A DNA stretch of 64,000 bases, from the NCBI GenBank assembly GCA_000165345.1, contig CM000432.1, positions 736,001 through 800,000 of the forward strand, written 5' to 3'. Positions 2,551-17,584 of the stretch are shown one piece after another (position 1 is the stretch's first letter; every line of letters starts with the position of its first letter). Below the pieces are notes generated by a model, which was given only the letters and a program-made list of their open reading frames with translations, had not been told where the DNA came from and ran no database searches. A program made the translations under genes and the position numbers.

Positions 2551-3052
2551 CCTTAATTCAAATACTATTTATTTTCGCCAGCTTTGCTTTTGATTCACTC
2601 CTAAAATAGTACTCTCGTATATTTTGCTGAGAGGAACTACCCTTAGCCTTAAAATTCTGTGTGGTATTTTCCCGCCAGACCATTAAAATAATAAAAAAAG
2701 CATTTCCTGATGAGAAGATGGCGGCAGCATCTTTAATTTGTCAATACTCAGTACATGTATACAGCAATGGGATAAATTTTATAAAGCCTTATAATAAAAA
2801 ACTAAAGTGTTTGCCTACATTTAATAGCGCATGTTTCCATTCGAATTCTAATATCTAGATAAAAGTCACTTCTTTTCATAAATAACACTCGTAGGAATGT
2901 TAAAGAGTTATTTAGGGTATTTTCTAATGTTATTTCTAAATATTTTTTCGAGGAAATAGATAAGCCACAAAAAAACCTCGTTGCAATTGAAGTTCTGAAT
3001 TTCATATATAACCTTCTGCTGAATTATGTTTCTGCTTATAAGTTTTTATTAT

Positions 3053-5263
3053 TTAAGTTATTGTTGATTCTTCCGTATCACTTCCCTCAAAATGTGGTCC
3101 AGAAAGCCCCTGGATATCATTACCTGCAGCTTCTCTTTCAGATTCAACAATTATGCTAACGTCCAGAGATATGTTATCATTCGATGCTTCAACTGTTCTG
3201 TTATTTGGGATTTCATCAGCTGAAATTTGTCTGCTCTCAACTACGGGTGAGGCATATACACTAGCAGGCATTGAAACCGAAATTTTAGACATACTGCTCT
3301 TTAAATCAGTGGAGCTTTCTCTCGAAATGTTGGAGAATTTTTCAAACAAATTTTCTAAATCTTTTTGCTCTGAAGATTTTGTCGTTAATGTATTACCAGT
3401 ATATTGGCTTTCTTGCCTTCCATTTGAAATACAACTGTTTAAGGAAACAGATCCAGTAATCTTCTCATCTGAACCATTATTTCTATTTTTATTGGAACAA
3501 ATTTCTCTTTGATCGTTTTTACATTCACATTTAATCTCTATCTCTGAGCCCTCTTTTTCTGACTGGCATACACATTCTTTGATTTCTTGAGAAATCATTG
3601 TCAATTCTGCTCCAGAGAAAGTATTAGTATGATCTATTAGATCTCCAAAAATTTCATAATTATATTTTTTATTATGAATAACATCTGAACTATAGCAAAG
3701 TTCCTCGACCTCTGATAACTCTTTTGTAAGAATTGATACCTTTTGTTCAAATTCTGGCTTGGAAATAACTATGCCATTTTCAGAGCTTACTTCAGATTGA
3801 GAGCTTGATTTACCTCCGGAATTGCAATTCAGAGACTTTGCAAAACCATACCATACCGATCCTGCAAGAGTTAAACAAATACCAGTAATAGTGTGAACAC
3901 TTGCATGGTCATGGAATATTATGAATCCACCTGCTGTTTGGGCGCAACTCTTGAACATGCCTAACACATTAAATGTAACTGGGGAGGTATACCCTACGAC
4001 CAAAAATGTAAAGTAATTCAGAAGCATTGAAAGTAATCCGCACAATATCAACAAAGTCCAAAGTCTAAAGAACTCAGGTGAATTTGTATTAAAAGCAGCC
4101 GAACCCATTATCAATTCTAATTCACGGGCAAGGAATATGCATGGTATTAACAGAATGGTAGAAATACATTGGTTATATTTCATTAGTTGTATTGCATCTC
4201 CATTGAAATAATTCATACATTTTTTCATAAATACATTATAAAATACTTGGCAGAATGATGATGCTAATCCTGTAACAATTCCCATAGCTGAAAGAGTAGA
4301 CCTGTCTAGAGAGCCTATCAGAAAACCTGCACAAACGACTATGCATGCAAGAATAGATTGCCAAGTTTGTTTTTGCCCGAGCATAAAATATGATACAATA
4401 ACAGTGAAGATCAAAGACCCCGATCTTGCGAGTTGATAAGTTGAAACCTGTACATATTTTAAACAAATATTTCCAAATGCAACGAGCCCGACAAAGCAAA
4501 TTGACATAGGTAATATTTTTAGTAACTTCTTCATTTCAGCACTGAACTTAATGTTAGTTCTTTTCTGTTTCGCCTTTTCATTAACTGTATTTTCTTCAAT
4601 TCTAATGTTCTGTGAAGAGTTTGCTACAGAGCTATCTTTCAGTTGAGTTTCTTCTATTAAAGAATTTTCTTGGAACGAAATTTCAATGGGAATACTTCTA
4701 TTAGAACCTGCTTCCAGTTCTTTAGCTGAAATATTTTCGTTGGACGTACAATTTGTACTTGTTGCATTTACCTTTCTTGTTTCATTTTCTTTCCTTGGGT
4801 TTGTACTATCTCCGGAATTTTCAGAAGAATCCTTATTCATTTTTGACATGTTTGGAGTTCTTCTAGAAAGTGATAAAATTCCAAAGCAAAATACTCCTAC
4901 AATCTGTTGAACCCATGTTGCAAATACAGGAAAGGGCGCAACTTTATCAAAGAGCCAATGATTATAGTAAATAATTGCAATTGATGTAAAAAAATACCCA
5001 ACTATCGTATATAATGTTAAAAATATGTTATTGTTGTTAGAGAGCCTAATTCTGCTAAATATTTTGTTCTTCTTTGGATTAACACTTTCCTTGCCATCTT
5101 TTCCAATATTAACTAAGTTATCGCATTTATTGCCAAGTATTCCTTGTTCCAAATCTCTATTTAAGTCGCTTTCTATCTCGAATGAAGGATTTTTAAGTTT
5201 TGCTTCCGCTTTAAGACTCTTTTCTTCAGATGAATTATTAATCTTTGAGTCGCTTGAAATCAT
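3053..5263 (-). CDS. TPT/SLC35-family nucleotide-sugar transporter-like membrane protein with long Ser/Asn/Glu-rich N- and C-terminal extensions and an internal low-complexity insert
   Basis: Multi-TM core (LTLYTIVGYFFTSIAIIYYNHWLF ... GSLIFTVIVSYFMLGQKQTWQSILACIVVCAGFLIG ... NYFTFLVVGYTSPVTFNVLGMFKSC) resembles GDP-fucose/UDP-sugar transporters. The ORF-track start 5269 is TTG; the first ATG is at 5263. Confidence 0.7.
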   Translation of the reverse strand: MISSDSKINNSSEEKSLKAEAKLKNPSFEIESDLNRDLEQGILGNKCDNLVNIGKDGKESVNPKKNKIFSRIRLSNNNNIFLTLYTIVGYFFTSIAIIYYNHWLFDKVAPFPVFATWVQQIVGVFCFGILSLSRRTPNMSKMNKDSSENSGDSTNPRKENETRKVNATSTNCTSNENISAKELEAGSNRSIPIEISFQENSLIEETQLKDSSVANSSQNIRIEENTVNEKAKQKRTNIKFSAEMKKLLKILPMSICFVGLVAFGNICLKYVQVSTYQLARSGSLIFTVIVSYFMLGQKQTWQSILACIVVCAGFLIGSLDRSTLSAMGIVTGLASSFCQVFYNVFMKKCMNYFNGDAIQLMKYNQCISTILLIPCIFLARELELIMGSAAFNTNSPEFFRLWTLLILCGLLSMLLNYFTFLVVGYTSPVTFNVLGMFKSCAQTAGGFIIFHDHASVHTITGICLTLAGSVWYGFAKSLNCNSGGKSSSQSEVSSENGIVISKPEFEQKVSILTKELSEVEELCYSSDVIHNKKYNYEIFGDLIDHTNTFSGAELTMISQEIKECVCQSEKEGSEIEIKCECKNDQREICSNKNRNNGSDEKITGSVSLNSCISNGRQESQYTGNTLTTKSSEQKDLENLFEKFSNISRESSTDLKSSMSKISVSMPASVYASPVVESRQISADEIPNNRTVEASNDNISLDVSIIVESEREAAGNDIQGLSGPHFEGSDTEESTIT

Positions 5264-5870: not shown

Positions 5871-7460
5871 ATGTTAAAGGTAATTTTGGCAGTATTAATA
5901 GGAATCCTTCTAAGGATGCTTATTGGATATTCTGAATATTCTGGCCAATCAGACCCACCAATGTTTGGAGACTTTGAGGCACAACGACACTGGATTGAAA
6001 TTACTACAAATTTGCCAGTTAATATGTGGTACATTGATAATAAACACAATAATTTGAGTTATTGGCCATTGGATTATCCACCATTAACTGCATATCACAG
6101 TATGCTGTGTGGCAAGGTTGCGCATTTTTTAGGATTTAGCAAATTTTTTGAATTGGACAAATCAAAGGGAATAGAGAGTGAGACTCTAAAATGGTTTATG
6201 AGAGGTACCGTTTTGGTTAGCGATATTCTGATTTTCTTTTCTGCTTTTGTATTTTATTGGAGTGTTTCCAATCCTATTAGAGATAAGAGTGAATCAAACA
6301 AATATTTGTTGGTGACTCTTGTATCAGCACCTTATATTTTCGTGGACCATTCTCATTTCCAATATAATTGTGTTGCAATCGGTTTGGTAGTTTGGTCGGT
6401 AAATTTCCTTTATTGCGGCTACCACGCTTTATCAATATTTTCCATAGTTTGTGCAGTATTCTTTAAACAAACCATGCTTTACTTTATACCTGCGTTTGCA
6501 TTCATTTATATTTCAATAATAATTAATACTAAAGGATTCGTAGTGAAAGTCAAACGAGTAATTTATTTCGGGTTAACAGGAATACTTTCAACGCTGTCAA
6601 TTTTGTATCCGTTTATTTTTGATAATATAAAGAATCCATTAAACTATAAAGATATCTTTTATACTACAAGATTTGGTAGTTTACTAGCCAAATATAAAAT
6701 GAATTTTCTTATTCCAATAATAAAAAGAGTTATACCTATATGGAGAGGTGCTTGGGAAAATCATGTCGCATCTTTTTGGTTTGCAAATATATTTATTGTT
6801 AACTTAAAGAAATGGGCAATGAAAAGTGAAGATAACTTAAATACTGCGCTTCAAATCTGTACAACTTGTACTTTATTGGGGTTCTTGCCAGCATGCTTAA
6901 ATTTATTAAATAATCCTTCAAGAAAAAAATTCGAGATTGCTTTGCTTGCATCCTCTCTTTCATTTTTTTTATTTTCTTGGCAGGTACATGAAAAAAGTAT
7001 TATTTTACCACTTACGCCAGCATTACTATTAATGGATACTTTCCCATTGATATCGCTAAGCTTCATTATAGTTTCATCATTTTCGCTTGTAACACTATCA
7101 ATCTTGGATAAAACAACTTCATATCTAATGATTTTTGGATTATTCTCAATTATCATTTCATTTTATGTTTTGCATGGTAAAATTGAAAGATCCAATGGAA
7201 TTGTTGGGTTAATGTATGATAATATGCCGATAATTCTGTCAATATTGTTTTCACTTATGCTTGCTTGCCAGTATTTAGTTCCCCCACCTATAAGATACCC
7301 ATGGTTACACGAATTTTTAAATGCACTGGTCTGCGCATGGACTCTATTTTCTCTACTTATTATATGCACATTGAAGGGAATTTCTTCTGGAGGAAAAAAC
7401 GAACAAAAAAAAGGGTCTCAAATTAATGATATTAACCTAATTTATAATGATAAGAATTAA
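5871..7460 (+). CDS. ALG6: Dolichyl-P-Glc:Man(n)GlcNAc2-PP-dolichol alpha-1,3-glucosyltransferase (ALG6 family)
   Basis: GDFEAQRHWIEITTNLPVNMWY ... LSYWPLDYPPLTAYHS is the ALG6/ALG8 N-terminal signature (EAQRHW matches ALG6), and the protein is multi-pass. The ORF-track start 5865 is TTG; the ATG is at 5871. Confidence 0.85.
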   Translation: MLKVILAVLIGILLRMLIGYSEYSGQSDPPMFGDFEAQRHWIEITTNLPVNMWYIDNKHNNLSYWPLDYPPLTAYHSMLCGKVAHFLGFSKFFELDKSKGIESETLKWFMRGTVLVSDILIFFSAFVFYWSVSNPIRDKSESNKYLLVTLVSAPYIFVDHSHFQYNCVAIGLVVWSVNFLYCGYHALSIFSIVCAVFFKQTMLYFIPAFAFIYISIIINTKGFVVKVKRVIYFGLTGILSTLSILYPFIFDNIKNPLNYKDIFYTTRFGSLLAKYKMNFLIPIIKRVIPIWRGAWENHVASFWFANIFIVNLKKWAMKSEDNLNTALQICTTCTLLGFLPACLNLLNNPSRKKFEIALLASSLSFFLFSWQVHEKSIILPLTPALLLMDTFPLISLSFIIVSSFSLVTLSILDKTTSYLMIFGLFSIIISFYVLHGKIERSNGIVGLMYDNMPIILSILFSLMLACQYLVPPPIRYPWLHEFLNALVCAWTLFSLLIICTLKGISSGGKNEQKKGSQINDINLIYNDKN

Positions 7461-9603: not shown

Positions 9604-12084
9604 CTATGCTAAGTATAAGAGCTTTTCCGGGTCGTCTTGATCATTTTCAAGATACTCTCTTTCTATTAAATATTTAATTTTGTCGATTATCATTATTTCA
9701 GAGGGTTTATATTCGCATAGTTGGGATGAGACATGGGCAATGATATCGCTTCTTGTCATTTGTCCTTTAATTTTCATAATTTTAACAATTGCTGCTTCTA
9801 TGGCATGGCTTTTGTCGTATTCAGTACGATTCTTTCGAGTTGTTTCTGTTTGATGTGGTAATTTAATAATTATTGGAGATATGACATCGGTTGAAACAAA
9901 CTCAAAATTCACTTCAAATACTGGATTGTCTGGGGAAATTTGGGTGTTATTGACAAATTTCAAAATTCCTACGTCAGAATATAAAGGTTTTATATGTTTT
10001 AATATGATGGACTTTTCTGTATTTAGTAAGCTTTGAAGCTCAAGTAAAGATAAGCTGATAAAATCATTGAATTGTAGCAGAATACATGCTTGGTACGTAT
10101 TACAATGTATTTCAAAGAATTTAAATGTTCCATTTGGCGTTGGCAGCTTGTAGTCTAAAACACATTCCCCATACCAATATATCCAAGTGAGCTTTCTGTG
10201 GCTAGTTTCTAAGGAATAAAATGTTTCAAAATCGCTTATACAGTTTTTTAGGTTAGTTGGCAGGTTTATGTTTGAGGAGTCTAATGTAGGCCAATTCGAA
10301 CTTGTCAAAATATTAACGGCAAAGTCAACTTTCGTAGGAATTAGAGCCTTAACAATTTGTAAACCCAAATCAGATATTTTGTTGTCTTTTATTTCAAACT
10401 CTTTATTTTCTATTTCACCTTTTTTAATGTCTCTTAAGTACTCTTTGAATTTATTATTCAAATTTCGAGTCATTCGAATATCCGTAATCATCCCTTCTAA
10501 CTTGGATGTGAACCCAGCTCCACATTTGCTTTTAAGTAAAGATATAATATACAGCTCATTTTTTTCTAAGGATAAGTGATATTGAAGAAGCCTTTTTGCA
10601 AGTAGAAACTTGTAAATTTGAAGAAAGTAATCTTGAAAGTGGATGTAGGAAAAAATTTCCACAAGTTTTCCAGCTAATACAGCAAATTGATTGTTAGACA
10701 GGAAAGCGTTGAAATCGTTCCCAATCTCAGAGTAGCTGTTTTTTAATAATAAGTCGCAATAAAAACAAACAAGTTTTGCCTGGTTTTGGCAACCAACTTC
10801 TAAATTAACAATTACTTCAAAAGACTCACGAATTGTCTTTTGAACTGCAGTATCATTATCAAAACAGTTTTCCAATAAGTATATTGAATGATCAAAAAGA
10901 GAAATAATCGTTTGCACGAATAAGGTTTCGTATTTCATATTCATAAAAGGAACAATAATTGATTTTCCAAGCATCCAAGGCCAATTTTCGGCTAAATTAT
11001 GCGTAGATTGGATTTGGTCAAAAGTTTCTTCATTATCAATCTCAATATCTTCAGCAAAATGAATTGACTCCGAGAATTTATTAATTACCAATTGGCCACA
11101 CTCAGTTAGGTAGTGCTTAAATTGAGTATTTAATGCATGCATTCCATGATGAATTGTAGAAAAGTGTCTAAACAATAATTTTAGTTGCTCGAATTCATTG
11201 TCTAAAAACATCTTCTTAATAGAGCTAGAATTTGAAAGAATCGCTTTCATTTCATCTGCAAGTAATATTTGAGTTAATGATTTTTGTATTTTTTTCCTCG
11301 TAGAATTAAATAAACACAATTCGCATAGCTTATTCTCAAAATTAACAATGCCATCCACGCGAGATAAGTATTCTAATAATTTGTCATTCCTAACCCATTT
11401 GGGTGCAAGACTCCCATAGTAAGAGTTTAAGCGATTAATAACGATATTTTCTATCTCATTTTCGTATATTTCTGGGATTTTGCTCTTCTCGCTCATTTCC
11501 AAACACACATTCACAACTCCTTTCATAAGTTCACTGTCAATATCTTTGGTTCCAAGCCTGTACTCCTGAATAGAATTACTGAATGAAAGTGAAATACTCT
11601 CTTTGAATTCCAAATATATAGTTTCATAAAATATAGTGATTCCTTTTAGCATTAGACTTCCTTCTCCTGCAATCTTAATGTGATATTTGTTCAAGTAACC
11701 AAAAAAGCGTTCCATCCAGTGCGTATAAATTAAGTGGTTACTCCATGAAAGCCGGAATTCAAACAGTAGCCCAGATCCTGTAGAATTTTTCAATTTACTA
11801 ATAACGTTTTCTTTCAAAAAATTCTCAATAGTTTCAGAATATTTGGTAAATAACTGCCTACTCCAATTTCTAGGATTTTGGGTGCACATATTATAAATTA
11901 AAGTATAGATTTTTGAATAATCTTTGGCAGTAAATAAGTTCTTTACTGTATCATTAATCTGGGTCCTATTTAGCAAATATGTTTCCAAAGGCTCGATAGC
12001 TTCTCTTTTAATTTGGGCCCATCCCTCCTCAAACCCAATGTTTTTATCCGAATCTGTGCATTCTCTATTGAGTGATTCCGACAT
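9604..12084 (-). CDS. Cullin family protein (CUL1-like)
   Basis: 824 aa with a cullin-repeat architecture and a C-terminal neddylation / winged-helix tail (IEAAIVKIMKIKGQMTRSDIIAHVSSQL ... IDKIKYLIEREYLENDQDDPEKLLYLA). The ORF-track start 12117 is TTG; the first ATG is at 12084 (MSESLNRE...). Confidence 0.8.
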   Translation of the reverse strand: MSESLNRECTDSDKNIGFEEGWAQIKREAIEPLETYLLNRTQINDTVKNLFTAKDYSKIYTLIYNMCTQNPRNWSRQLFTKYSETIENFLKENVISKLKNSTGSGLLFEFRLSWSNHLIYTHWMERFFGYLNKYHIKIAGEGSLMLKGITIFYETIYLEFKESISLSFSNSIQEYRLGTKDIDSELMKGVVNVCLEMSEKSKIPEIYENEIENIVINRLNSYYGSLAPKWVRNDKLLEYLSRVDGIVNFENKLCELCLFNSTRKKIQKSLTQILLADEMKAILSNSSSIKKMFLDNEFEQLKLLFRHFSTIHHGMHALNTQFKHYLTECGQLVINKFSESIHFAEDIEIDNEETFDQIQSTHNLAENWPWMLGKSIIVPFMNMKYETLFVQTIISLFDHSIYLLENCFDNDTAVQKTIRESFEVIVNLEVGCQNQAKLVCFYCDLLLKNSYSEIGNDFNAFLSNNQFAVLAGKLVEIFSYIHFQDYFLQIYKFLLAKRLLQYHLSLEKNELYIISLLKSKCGAGFTSKLEGMITDIRMTRNLNNKFKEYLRDIKKGEIENKEFEIKDNKISDLGLQIVKALIPTKVDFAVNILTSSNWPTLDSSNINLPTNLKNCISDFETFYSLETSHRKLTWIYWYGECVLDYKLPTPNGTFKFFEIHCNTYQACILLQFNDFISLSLLELQSLLNTEKSIILKHIKPLYSDVGILKFVNNTQISPDNPVFEVNFEFVSTDVISPIIIKLPHQTETTRKNRTEYDKSHAIEAAIVKIMKIKGQMTRSDIIAHVSSQLCEYKPSEIMIIDKIKYLIEREYLENDQDDPEKLLYLA

Positions 12085-12705
12085 AATTATTTGAACAATA
12101 TAATGAGTACAGAACAATTCTCATCTCCGCTCATTCGGCCATAACAGCCATTCTCGTTATTTTTAACAATTCGGAAAAACTATCGATTTTTTACTTGTAT
12201 TTTGTGAGAGGCGGGAATTTTAAAAAATAATATTTTTTTTTGACAGTTAAGAACACGTAACTTTTTCCTGATTATGAATATAAAGAAATAACATTTTTTT
12301 TTTAAGTTTAAAATAAAAGTACTTTAGAAAATGAATAAGCTGATAGATTATATTTCTACGCAAAAATACTATTTATACCAATACCTAAAATAGTTGCAAT
12401 TGCCCTGTAAATTTTCCGCATTCAAAAGTAAAATAAAGGAAATTAATAATAGATTTGTAATATTTCTTAAATATACTTGAGAGAAAAAAATTAGGAAATG
12501 GTAAAAATTTCACATTCGGCAGATATTTCCAAGCGGTATATTATTTACAAAGAAATTGCATGGCCAAAATTTATCTAACATTTTTTAGATAATTTAATCT
12601 CTAATTAATTAAGAATAAAATGCAAATTATTAAACTATTATATAATTATTGATAAATTAACTTTATTGCTCCCCACAAATGAAAATATATTTAGAGAGAC
12701 AGCGA

Positions 12706-12714
12706 TTTGGCGCC
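12706..12714. promoter_or_regulatory. E2F-like TTTGGCGCC site in the cullin/RPS3a divergent promoter
   Basis: Exact TTTGGCGCC, ~150 bp upstream of the RPS3a ATG. The same GGCGCC / TTTGGCGG family recurs at 5668-5676, 8319-8324, 17644-17649, 23420-23427, 28419-28424, 34125-34130, 35122-35129, 44904-44909, 48924-48941, 54469-54474, 56476-56484, 58297-58305 and 58364-58372. Confidence 0.5.
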
Positions 12715-12860
12715 GCATCTGCGTCTCTCATCAACACCTGGGACGAGTATAGTTAAAATGGTCAAGGTACGGCGTCTCAAAGCGCAAAAGCAACATTAAC
12801 AATAAAAGAAAAAAAGAGCTTGCTGCTTTCTTTTTTTATTAATTTCAATTAACATCGAAT

Positions 12861-13649
12861 ATGGCAATTGGTAAGAATAAGCGAATTTCTAAGGGTAGAA
12901 AGGGAGGACGTAAGAAAATTATTGATCCTTTGTCACGTAAGGAGTTTTACGACTTACGTGCCCCAAGTACCTTTAAAGTACGTAACTTCGGTACCACTAT
13001 TGCTTCCAAAAATCAAGGTACAAAGTTAGCAGTTGATGCTCTTAGACACAGAGTATATGAAGTGAGCTTGGCTGACTTAAACAACGATGAGGATCAGGCA
13101 TTCAGAAAGATTAAGTTGCAATGCGAGGATATTCAAGGAAGAACTTGCCTTACTGAATTCCATGGAATGGATATGACTAGGGACAAGCTCTGCTCCTTAA
13201 TTAGAAAGTACCAGACACTTATTGAAGCTCACTGCAACGTTAAAACTTCTGATGGTTATGTATTGAGATTGTTCTGTATCGCATTCACAAGAAGAATGGC
13301 GGACCAAGTAAAATCGACTTGCTATGCCCAGACTTCTCAAATTAGACAAATTAGAAAGAAGATGGTGGAGATTATCACAGCAGAGGCAGAAGGTACAACT
13401 CTACGTGATTTGGTAAAGAAATTCATCCCAGAGTCAATAGGTAAGGAGATTGAAAAGGCATGTAGGCACATTTTCCCATTACAACATGTATTTATTCGTA
13501 AGGTTAAGGTATTATCAAAGCCATCGTTTGATGTGTCTCGTCTTATGGAAAGCCATGTTGGTGCTGATGGTGTTGAAGAAAAAGGTACTAAGGTTGTTTC
13601 CGAATCAAACCAAGCAACCAATTTATTGACTGCTGAGATGAAGGCATAA
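12861..13649 (+). CDS. RPS3A: 40S ribosomal protein S3a (eS1)
   Basis: [46 protein letters not shown] ... is the canonical eS1 sequence; single exon. Confidence 0.95.
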
Positions 13650-14114
13650 CTTTAAACTTTTCGATTTCATAGATATTATTAGGGATTATCTTCACATTTA
13701 AGTGATCAATTTCAAATTTGTATGTTCTCCTGATTTTTGCTTCTATTGCGTACGCGATTTCTGTTAGTGCATTGCAGAATTTGAAGTTCCTTTCAGAGTT
13801 CTTTGGAAGAGAAACGGACTTAATGAATAGTTATTTGATGCCAGAAAGGTCAATTGGAATAGCTTTTTTCTTTCTCCAAACACTTAGCACTTTGCCATAC
13901 AAGAGAGTTATTTTGTAGTAGATGCTAGCTAAAGTATTGCTCAAGGGTGAATTACTAATCTTTATAAGCTATTATTTCACAAAATAGTCTAAAGATTTGT
14001 TTGATTTCTTCGCTTATCCCGCTGTTAATTTTTTATCCAATTAATTTTTTTTAATAGGCAAATTAGTCTACAACTTAGCAGGCGGAAGAAATTAGTCGCA
14101 AATCAAATATTAAA

Positions 14115-14718
14115 ATGGGAGAGCCTTCTGAGAATAAACCCCAAAGCTTGCCAAATAATTTATTTCTAAATGATAACTTAAAGTTTGACAAATTGGATTT
14201 GGATGTAACAAAATTTAGAAGAAAGCAAGATTTATACTTTAACTCTTATGACAGGCTTTGGGGGGAAAAGGTAACTTATAGTGTGGGTCTATCTTATGGG
14301 ACAGGTATGCTTTCTCCCTGTTTTTTTATTAAGCAAATAATTATGATTTAATTAGGTTTTTGTTTGGGCTCTACATATGGGCTAATTAATGCAATGAAAA
14401 GGCCTGCACTTACACCTAAGCTTAAAATAAATTCAATCCTCAATGAGTGTGCATCTAGTAGTGCAAAAATTGCAAATCCACTTTCTATTATTAGTAAGTC
14501 CTCACGATATTGATGCGCCAGCGAGCATTGTAATTCACATAGCTTTATTCTATTGTGGGTTTTATAGAGCAACAAAAGCTATTAGGAAAAAAGATGATTC
14601 CCTAAATTCTATAATTTCTGGAGCTTTGTCCGGAGCACTATACAAGTCAGCGTCCTCAAAACGAGTTTTGGGAAGATATACACTAATCTCAGCAGGTAAG
14701 TTTGCGATAAAGAAGTAA
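14115..14718 (+). CDS. Tim17/Tim22/Tim23 (PRAT) family inner-membrane translocase subunit, three exons: 14115-14304, 14356-14493, 14543-14718
   Basis: Two ORF-track fragments (14115.. and 14443..) are joined by two short introns (GTATGC...TAG and GTAAGT...TAG) into a ~167 aa protein. Exon 3 carries the PRAT signature G-x2-[FY]-x10-R-x3-D-x6-[SG]G-x3-G (GFYRATKAIRKKDDSLNSIISGALSG). Confidence 0.6.
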
Positions 14719-14841
14719 TTTAGAGAGTTTTATTAATTTATGAAAAAAAAATTAAAAATGAAAAAAATATAGTTGCTTTTACTCTTATTGACCAAGTAAT
14801 ACGTTATAGTGAAAAATTATAGTCTATATCAATCTTTACGA

Positions 14842-16167
14842 TTATTTCTTTTTGTTACGATTTTTTAGTTTTCTATGACCAACTAGTGCTGTTTTTTCAT
14901 TAGAATCATTAAGTTCTGCATCAACAGTTCTTAGAGAGTCAACAACCTTTGCATGAATTGCCATTACTTCTTCTCTTTGTAAAGAAGTATACTCATCAAG
15001 TTTTCTATTTAGCGCAAATTCAATCCTCTGGAAAGTCTCAACGTCATATTGGGTAACCATAGAAATAGCTCTACCGCTCCTACCTGCTCTTGCAGTACGC
15101 CCAACACGATGTACATAATCCTTACTTGATGTCGGGATATCGAAGTTAATAACGAAGTCAACGTGTGGAATATCCAAACCTCTGCTTCCTACTTCTGTAG
15201 TAAACAATAACCTCTTTTGTTTTCCTTTGAAGAGATTCAATGCTGATAGACGTTGAGACTGCGACATTCTACCATGCAAACTAATGCTGTTAAATCCAAG
15301 TTCCTTTGCAAGCAAATCTCCTCTTCTACAATTGATACAAGTATTACAGAATATAATTCCAGTATATTGGCCCAAATTTTGGAGCATTCCAATAAAATAA
15401 CTCCATTTATACTTAAATGGTATAAACATATAATATTGCATTAAATTAGCAGCGGTATCATATTTTGTGTTTACACAAATTTTAATTGGATTTGATAATG
15501 AAATCTTCTGAAGTTTAGCGACCTTTGTTGTCATTGTTGCTGAAAATAAATAAGTAGTTCTATTTCTTGGGGACGATTCTACGATTTTATTCAATGCAAT
15601 TTCAAAATCCATAGATAACAATCTATCAGCCTCATCCATAACTAAGAACTTGATCCCCCCAATATTAAAACCCTTAGTGTTTTCTAAATGGTCAACTAAT
15701 CTTCCAGGGGATGCAACAATAATATGAGGTTTTTTTGCTAATGAAAGGGATTGCATAACCATATCAAGCCCTCCAACCAATGTTGCAATTTTCAAAGAGA
15801 TTAAAGAACCGAATGCAGAAAATTGTTCAGAAATCTGAACGCAAAGTTCTCTTGTTGGAGCTAATATAACAGCATACATTGGAACCTGATCATCAAGCAA
15901 TCTTTGCAATATTGGGATAATAAACGATCCAGTTTTGCCAGAACCTGTCTCTGCAAGTCCAATAATATCCCTTCCTTCAAGAGCTACTGGGATAGTCTTT
16001 TTTTGTATTTCTGTTGGAGTTTTCCAGCCTAAGGATTCACATGCAATACAAAGTTCTTTACAGACTCCTAGGGAAGCAAATGTTACGCTTTCCGAACTTT
16101 CTTCTTCAACATGTTCCGCTATTTTTGAAACATGACTTTCTAAAAACTCTGTACTTTTATTCTTCAT
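14842..16167 (-). CDS. DDX47: DEAD-box ATP-dependent RNA helicase, Rrp3/DDX47-like
   Basis: Q motif plus AETGSGKT, PTRELCVQI, VMDEADRLL, SAT and HRVGRTARAGRSGRAI. The N-terminus (FASLGVCKELCIACESLGWKTPTEIQ ... IPVALEGRDIIGLAETGSGKTGSF) is collinear with Rrp3/DDX47. Confidence 0.88.
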   Translation of the reverse strand: MKNKSTEFLESHVSKIAEHVEEESSESVTFASLGVCKELCIACESLGWKTPTEIQKKTIPVALEGRDIIGLAETGSGKTGSFIIPILQRLLDDQVPMYAVILAPTRELCVQISEQFSAFGSLISLKIATLVGGLDMVMQSLSLAKKPHIIVASPGRLVDHLENTKGFNIGGIKFLVMDEADRLLSMDFEIALNKIVESSPRNRTTYLFSATMTTKVAKLQKISLSNPIKICVNTKYDTAANLMQYYMFIPFKYKWSYFIGMLQNLGQYTGIIFCNTCINCRRGDLLAKELGFNSISLHGRMSQSQRLSALNLFKGKQKRLLFTTEVGSRGLDIPHVDFVINFDIPTSSKDYVHRVGRTARAGRSGRAISMVTQYDVETFQRIEFALNRKLDEYTSLQREEVMAIHAKVVDSLRTVDAELNDSNEKTALVGHRKLKNRNKKK

Positions 16168-16724
16168 TTCTACTCTTGTAGCTTATTTAATAAAATACAG
16201 TCGCATCAAAATCCAATTATTTGTCAAAAATATAATGTGAAGATAGCGTTTCTCAGTTTAATAAATTTTGGAAGTAGGGTTATTTGCCTTAAGTTATACC
16301 TTTTGAATCTTTTATTTCTTGAAAACGCAAATCCATAAAGTAGAAATTATACTCTTTTCCCTTAATAATAGTCAAATTTGATTCTTCGGTACACCGCCAA
16401 CACGCATCGGTCTCGAAGCTTATTATTATTGGTTAAGATCAGATTTAAGAGAAGCTAGGCAATAATATATTTAGAATATTAAAAATTTTAAAGGAAATAA
16501 TGTTAATGAGGGGAAGACTGGTATAATAAAAGCTAAAATTTTGAAATTAAAACTGAAAGATTTCAAATTCATATTTGCATTTTAAATGTAGTTGAAAGAG
16601 TAGCAAAATTTCAAATTTACCATATTTGAGAGTAATATATTTATAGACAATTATCGCTTATTAAGGTATTATTAAATTTTTTACCTATATAGTAATACTG
16701 AGATATTTATTAATATAAAAATTA

Positions 16725-17045
16725 ATGACTGAAGATTCCAATATTGAATCGCAAACTACAAAAAAAGATAACCCCAGCGAAGGGCCTCTAAGCTTATTAA
16801 CAGAATGTGTAAAAACAAATACACAAATTCTTGTTAATTGTAGAAATAATAGAAAGATTTTAGGGAGAGTTAAAGCATTTGACCGACATTGTAATTTACT
16901 TCTTACAGATGCAAGAGAAATATGGACGGAGTCCATGAAGTCCGGTAAAAAAGGATCTGCTAAATATATCAACAAAGATAGGTTTATTTCTAAATTATTC
17001 GTGAGGGGAGACTCTGTTATTTTAATTTTAAAGAGTCCGAACTGA
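16725..17045 (+). CDS. SNRPD2: Small nuclear ribonucleoprotein Sm D2
   Basis: [36 protein letters not shown] ... [20 protein letters not shown] matches SmD2 almost motif for motif. Confidence 0.9.
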
Positions 17046-17167
17046 CTAATTAATTAACTAGTATCATTATATAGCTTTTCGCATTGTTGAATAGTACTTT
17101 AATTTTATGTTTAATAGTGAATCATTTTCTAGATTGAAATTGATTTTACAATATATTGAGTTGTTAA

Positions 17168-17584
17168 TTAAGCAGTTTGATATTGATCTAGGACTAAGTT
17201 AATGCAGCCTTGTTCTTCTTCGTTATGTGAGTCAAATTCTTCCTCTGATTTAAATGATTTTTGGTTTTCAACCATTAATCTTTCAATAGTAGAATTAACT
17301 TGAAATTCAACATTGTCGTGCATAGTATTAATCTTTGTATTTAGAACATTTGAAAGTTCGTTTACATTTTTGTAGTAGCTTTAGAGATGATTAATTAAGT
17401 TCATTGCAAATTTCACTCAAACTTACCTAATTATATGACCTTCAAGCTCACTTTGTTTTTTTGGGTCAACTTTTGAAATAATGTTAACTGTTTCCTTAAG
17501 TTCATTCAAGATATTTATAAGTAAATTTTGGGTTTTTTCTAGGAATTCTGCTGGCCCTTCCAAAATATCCTTCTCTATTTCCAT
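17168..17584 (-). CDS. Hypothetical small coiled-coil protein (~122 aa), two exons: 17584-17427 and 17378-17168 (minus strand)
   Basis: ATG at 17584; exon 1 ends ...GHII+AG followed by a consensus GTAAGT donor (the plus strand shows ACTTAC at 17421-17426). A 48-nt intron ends ...AAAG, and exon 2 continues in frame to a TAA at 17170-17168. This gene is absent from the ORF track and has no recognisable family. Confidence 0.35.

Follow-up and report, generated by a model that had tools for sequence, protein, structure and literature searches.

The 64,000-nucleotide stretch of Cryptosporidium parvum DNA analysed here (the window) in all likelihood carries an intact, single-copy gene for the mitochondrial import protein Tim23, read from its sequence as four exons encoding 176 residues and four transmembrane (TM) helices (Table 1). 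The gene is already known in the genus, and the outcome is a modest correction of the C. parvum gene model. The spliced coding sequence of 531 nt is interrupted by three introns; every junction is GT..AG and in frame, and each intron, if retained, terminates the reading frame early, with retention of intron 1 leading to a stop and a 78-aa ORF. Across the exon 3/4 junction the frame runs …TLISA-VAFTLIDQVIRYSEKL, residues 161-176 reading (V)AFTLIDQVIRYSEKL, and the product ends …YSEKL. Tryptic peptides spanning the three junctions of the spliced product are VTYSVGLSYGTGFCLGSTYGLINAMK, IANPLSIITLFYCGFYR and YTLISAVAFTLIDQVIR. An exact look-up of the 176-aa C. parvum product in the protein collection returned no match.

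Table 1. Predicted Tim23 gene of C. parvum and its flanking genes (positions within the window)
Feature	Position	Strand	Description
Ribosomal protein S3a gene	12861-13649	+	flanks Tim23
Exon 1	14115-14304	+	190 nt; residues 1-63 and first base of codon 64; ATG at 14115
Intron 1	14305-14355	+	51 nt, GTATGC…TTAG, phase 1
Exon 2	14356-14493	+	138 nt; remainder of TM1, loop, most of long helix 2
Intron 2	14494-14542	+	49 nt, GTAAGT…ATAG, phase 1
Exon 3	14543-14695	+	153 nt; end of helix 2, PRAT-type motif, TM3, first half of TM4
Intron 3	14696-14772	+	77 nt, GTAAGT…ATAG, phase 1; AG acceptor at 14771-14772
Exon 4	14773-14822	+	50 nt including TAG at 14820-14822; residues 161-176, C-terminal half of TM4
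DEAD-box helicase gene	14842-16167	-	flanks Tim23, convergent

A preliminary description of the locus had proposed a Tim17/22/23 family gene of three exons and two introns, joining 14115-14304, 14356-14493 and 14543-14718. Splicing these segments together, with removal of introns of 51 and 49 nt that have GTATGC and GTAAGT donors and AG acceptors, keeps the frame open and yields 167 aa followed by a stop. The proposed family membership is borne out by an HMM check, in which the 167-aa product scores 74.7 bits (E=9.2e-21, cutoff 32.7) on PF02466, the alignment covering residues 54-151 and running across both junctions. Taken separately, the unspliced ORFs give 34.1 bits (91-aa ORF) and no score (78-aa ORF) on the same profile. 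A strong match across both junctions, against a weak match or none for the separate ORFs, therefore indicates that the splice-joined reading is real and not a product of chance. Both introns of the preliminary description thus stand, but its exon count does not. A third intron opens at 14696, hence four exons, and the segment 14696-14718 (…GKFAIKK*), previously taken as the coding end, reads instead as the start of that intron.

The N-terminal tail encoded by exon 1, ahead of the start of TM1, is short and poorly conserved, and both the Pfam and the Tim23 alignments continue unbroken through exon 2. The GC content of the introns is 23.5%, 44.9% and 16.9%, respectively, intron 2 being much richer in GC than introns 1 and 3, than the exons on either side of it (34-37%) and than the 22% reported as the intron mean for the genome. 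An RNA-seq-based reannotation found ~90% of C. parvum genes to be without introns, those containing introns having a mean of 2.6 exons and a mean intron of 99 bp with a GC content of 22% (PMC4637869). The C. parvum Tim23 gene is unusually intron-dense for its genome, and this density is probably the cause of the repeated errors made by gene callers at the locus.

Several other splice boundaries were considered and rejected. An intron 3 acceptor AG at 14726-14727 is in frame, but implies a 32-nt intron and coding across a stretch with non-triplet interspecies indels; the remaining candidate AGs for this intron yield short, non-conserved tails. Shifting the boundaries of intron 2 by one leaves the frame intact, but the intron then no longer has GT/AG ends.

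Conservation of the exon structure

The orthologous loci of six Cryptosporidium species (C. parvum, C. tyzzeri, C. meleagridis, C. ubiquitum, C. xiaoi and C. bovis) were aligned. Exons 1-3 are fixed at 190, 138 and 153 nt in all six, and the GT and AG of all six splice sites are invariant throughout. Over the same species the introns range in length from 48 to 89 nt (intron 1), 49 to 63 nt (intron 2) and 71 to 87 nt (intron 3), the longer form of intron 2 (63 nt) being that of C. xiaoi and C. bovis, while the other four species have 49 nt. Exon identity is greater than intron identity in every comparison; between C. parvum and C. ubiquitum, for instance, intron 3 is 60% identical, compared with 84% for exon 3 and 81% for exon 4. 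The GTAAGT donor of intron 3 and its AG are conserved in 6/6 species, and the frame of exon 4 is likewise preserved in each (VAFTLIDQVIRYSE, VAFTLIDRIIRYSE, VAFVLVDQILRKRE). The annotated tails that result from reading through intron 3 diverge among species (GKFAIKK, GKLGLKKKTFRQ…, GKLRNEKYF…), and the 'GK' with which they invariably begin is present because the GTAAG donor has been read as codons.

Support for exon 4 extends beyond the genus. A word-indexed homologue search gave only three Cryptosporidium clusters, and an exhaustive HMMER search reached Babesia, Oxyrrhis and others, with homologues of ~175 aa in Babesia gibsoni, the dinoflagellate Oxyrrhis marina and metagenomes. The alignments of these homologues extend as far as query residues 171-173 and so reach into exon 4, whose peptide aligns with the Babesia C-terminus VAFTGIDYALRNS and with Oxyrrhis VVFTSLDQAMK. 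On an independent profile, built exclusively from non-Cryptosporidium sequences, the scores are 174.2 bits for the 176-aa model, 159.5 for the 167-aa model and 96.5 for a 115-aa model, exon 4 adding 14.7 bits.

The B. gibsoni orthologue, named 'hypothetical protein BgAZ_202020' (JAVEPI010000002.1; 1501-2084 of the locus examined), has a sole intron of 56 nt, which lies at the site and in the phase of Cryptosporidium intron 1 (YGT|G, phase 1). Intron 1 is therefore ancient, being older than the split between Cryptosporidium and Babesia. Within Cryptosporidium, C. bovis has 31 nt inserted in intron 1 when compared with C. xiaoi, and the gene spans 3001-3643 and 3001-3674 of the loci examined in C. 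xiaoi and C. bovis, respectively. The 63-nt intron 2 of these two species is in frame and free of stops; in the public models it is treated as coding and adds 21 residues (SKLIIIIKMLLKLRHKLQLQLA) midway along helix 2.

Family assignment, predicted structure and maintenance of the gene

The 176-aa model scores 75.2 bits (E=6.5e-21, cutoff 32.7) on PF02466 (Tim17/Tim22/Tim23/Pmp24). The canonical PRAT motif of this superfamily is [G/A]-x2-[F/Y]-x10-R-x3-D-x6-[G/A/S]-G-x3-G, and the C. parvum string is T110-x2-Y113-x10-R124-x3-D128-x6-S135-G136-x3-G140. The strict canonical regular expression therefore finds no match in the C. parvum protein, with only the first position deviating (T110 for G/A). 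The preliminary description had reported the signature as GFY-x10-R-x3-D-x6-SG-x3-G, for which there is no regular-expression match either, as the aromatic residue that precedes the arginine by 11 positions is Y113 of 'LFYC' and not the Y of 'GFY'. It had also placed the complete signature inside the last exon, which does not hold: the motif starts at the exon 2/3 junction and is not wholly in one exon, because the codon of its first position, T110, is split by intron 2.

Within the family, Tim23 ranks first in every comparison of sequence, profile and fold, and it is by this ranking that the C. parvum protein is filed as a putative Tim23 orthologue. In sequence searches against PDB chains the E-values are 1.4e-10 for yeast Tim23, 0.65 for Tim17 and 1.1 for Tim22; the corresponding profile values are 5.6e-27, 2e-5 and ~2e-4. 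Amongst the NCBIfam models, TIGR00983 (Tim23) gives 77.5 bits and TIGR00980 (Tim17) 31.3, both under the curated cutoffs. As the TIGR00983 score is far below its cutoff of 181.7, the protein is assigned to Tim23 by the ranking of its best matches; with positions 25-145 of the 149 in the model aligned, the low score reflects divergence and not truncation. The nearest relatives that bear a name in their source databases are called TIM23.

An AlphaFold2 (AF2) model was made from the C. tyzzeri protein, which differs from that of C. parvum by one residue. The model has a mean pLDDT of 85.6, rising above 90 from residue 50 on, and places helices at residues 49-78, 84-124, 129-143 and 149-175. The four TM helices that had been expected from the first inspection of the sequence are thus found in the model, provided that exon 4 is included: exon 4 supplies residues 161-176 and, without it, TM4 is halved. 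Residues 1-50 have a pLDDT of 56-65, and the low-confidence region ahead of TM1 comprises ~45 residues; exon 1 shares 58% nucleotide identity between C. parvum and C. xiaoi. The best Foldseek match in the PDB is 8e1m_B (TMt 0.88, rmsd 1.6 Å), which we take to be yeast Tim23 because the Tim17 sequence is that of 8e1m_A and 8e1m appears under the Tim23 sequence as well. The Tim17 chain, 8e1m_A, follows with a TMt of 0.75 and an rmsd of 3.3 Å, and Tim22 (7cgp_A, 6lo8_A) with a TMt of 0.45-0.54.

Nei-Gojobori estimates of dN/dS for the four-exon coding sequence lie between 0.06 and 0.23, and between 0.04 and 0.13 in the membrane core (codons 46-174). Such values argue against a pseudogene and, judged from its coding sequence, C. 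parvum Tim23 is a maintained gene, not a relic. All seven genomes examined share the gene order cullin, RPS3a, Tim23, DEAD helicase, LSM, and positions 11115-17513 of the window are identical at 6,399/6,399 bases to the C. parvum chromosome 4 record CP044419.1 (GCA_015245375.1). The stop codons of Tim23 and of the DEAD-box helicase (14842-14844, on the opposite strand) are 19 nt apart, so the 3' UTRs of these genes must overlap as antisense transcripts. Upstream, GGCGGAAGAAA occurs at 14080-14100 of the window, ~25 nt before the Tim23 start codon, and is a possible counterpart of GGCGGGAAA, an E2F-like motif described from the promoters of Cryptosporidium genes. Scans of the whole window for tRNAs and Rfam families gave no matches.

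Public annotations and alternative readings

Eight annotated Cryptosporidium species were examined and five different gene models were found among them, one of which agrees with the four-exon structure. This is the 176-aa C. tyzzeri protein TRY52065.1 (CTYZ_00002081), already annotated with the identical four exons and differing from the C. parvum product at one residue (R35K); it belongs to a species other than C. parvum and is without a functional name, being an 'Uncharacterized protein'. The models for C. hominis, where the gene is annotated 'TIM23-1', and for C. meleagridis are 167 aa long and equal that of the preliminary description, with intron 3 read through. Intron 3 is also read through in C. 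ubiquitum (179 aa) and in C. xiaoi and C. bovis (194 aa), the latter two additionally keeping the in-frame intron 2 as coding, and the C. ryanae model is truncated at 127 aa. The expectation that this gene would be easily mis-annotated proved well founded in C. parvum itself, where the reference stops at 115 aa. This 'Uncharacterized protein' is carried by two assemblies (QOY42122.1 / WRK31904.1; cpbgf_4003170 / CPATCC_0019450) at the same locus, with DNA that is 100% identical and exons 1-2 identical to those described here. Intron 2 is retained, so that the model ends …IISKSSRY*, exons 3-4 are unannotated and the last 66 residues (110-176: end of helix 2, PRAT motif, TM3 and TM4) are missing.

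Should the three-exon model be correct, 14696-14718 would be coding and the protein would end, after 167 aa, in …ISAGKFAIKK. The frame is open to a stop at 14716-14718, the Pfam match is strong and the public annotations of two species use this model. However, the residues following 'SAG' are not conserved among species (FAIKK, LGLKKK…, LRNEKYF…), their leading 'GK' is accounted for by the donor, and the region holds indels that are not multiples of three. TM4 would moreover be cut to ~12 hydrophobic residues and a lysine-rich tail, in place of the 27-residue helix of the AF2 model and the homologues, and the score on the independent profile falls by the 14.7 bits that exon 4 contributes; this model is accordingly regarded as highly unlikely. 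More improbable still is that the C. parvum reference is right and that the organism possesses a degenerating, two-helix Tim23 of 115 aa. Besides its presence in both assemblies, such a protein would suit the description by Fukasawa et al. 2017, who placed C. parvum Tim23 in the Tim23 column of their survey as 'fragmental' and of weak similarity (PMC5455965). Yet intact exons 3 and 4 follow immediately after it, with conserved splice sites and under purifying selection in six species, and their omission removes the PRAT motif, TM3 and TM4 and costs 78 bits on the independent profile. The published remark is explained by the reference annotating just 115 aa, and it is the annotation, not the gene, that is 'fragmental'.

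Two further alternatives leave the four exons in place and concern what the gene does. The protein might not be a dedicated Tim23, but a Tim17 or Tim22 orthologue, or else the sole Tim17-family translocase, acting as a generalist, as in Giardia or kinetoplastids. One report (PMC6200312) describes mitosomes of other lineages that have collapsed to one Tim17-family protein, and the subthreshold TIGR00983 score would fit such a reading. Against this stand the wide margin by which Tim23 is ranked first in the sequence, profile and fold comparisons, the TIM23 names of the closest named relatives and the column chosen by Fukasawa et al., and the proposal is considered very unlikely. It is also conceivable, albeit at a low probability, that intron 2 or 3 is kept in a stage-specific manner to give truncated, non-functional products that tune mitosome import capacity. 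The presence of three introns in so short a coding sequence, in a genome of which ~90% of genes are intronless (PMC4637869), and the early end of the frame upon any retention would be in keeping with this; however, simple inheritance accounts just as well for the conserved introns, as intron 1 predates the Cryptosporidium-Babesia split. That splicing efficiency sets the amount of functional Tim23, and hence mitosome import, the 115-aa and 167-aa products being real and stage-specific rather than annotation errors, is a conjecture to which we attach little likelihood.

Few components of inner-membrane import can be recognised in the Cryptosporidium mitosome, and Tim23 is one of them. Where the TIM inventory is concerned, several reviews touch on Cryptosporidium only briefly. 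With a complete gene, four helices and purifying selection, an apparent oddity disappears from surveys of mitochondrial import evolution, and the correct reading frame is now given for tagging, knock-down and heterologous expression in the reference species. Five models for one gene also provide a test case for curators, although no new biology.

Comparison with known import systems

As the mitosome has no genome, all of its proteins, including the enzymes of Fe-S cluster and ubiquinone metabolism, need an import route. These two pathways depend on import that is thought to require a membrane potential, the source of which is unresolved (PMC12691609). In yeast, cryo-EM has revealed a back-to-back heterodimer of Tim17 and Tim23 in which the Tim17 cavity forms the translocation path, Tim23 having an architectural role and a cavity restricted by its inward-tilted TM4 (PMC11452300). 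By analogy with the yeast TIM23 complex, C. parvum Tim23 would reside in the mitosome inner membrane and may pair back-to-back with a Tim17 paralogue, so as to make up the scaffolding half of the core of the presequence translocase. Imported proteins would then cross along Tim17, with TM4 of Tim23 leaning into the cavity of Tim23 itself.

The C. parvum protein and yeast Tim23 (PDB 7clv, 8e1m, 8scx, 9j9b) have the four-helix membrane fold of the Tim17 family in common and are 28% identical over 130 columns. The R-x3-D-x6-[GAS]-G-x3-G core and the 'GALYKS/GALFKS' motif of TM3 are conserved between them, whereas the first PRAT position is Thr in C. parvum and Ala in yeast. At 176 aa the C. parvum protein is shorter than yeast Tim23 (222 aa), and the alignment begins near yeast residue 90. 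The presumed intermembrane-space N-terminus comprises ~45 residues, predicted with low confidence, compared with ~95 in yeast, and the handling of presequences and of Tim50 may therefore be simplified.

To our knowledge, intestinal Cryptosporidium species are without complex I and a plastid. Yeast Tim17 and Tim22, the complex I subunit NDUFA11/B14.7 and OEP16 share the PF02466/PRAT superfamily fold with the C. parvum protein, but yeast Tim17 and Tim22 are far weaker matches than Tim23 in both sequence and structure. The myzozoan homologues B. gibsoni KAK1443326.1 (175 aa) and the O. marina transcripts (178 aa) are of similar length to the C. parvum protein, possess a similarly short N-terminus and are 33-40% identical to it. 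The Babesia gene contains one intron, equivalent to intron 1, compared with three in Cryptosporidium, and both Babesia and Oxyrrhis have respiring mitochondria, unlike the mitosome of Cryptosporidium.
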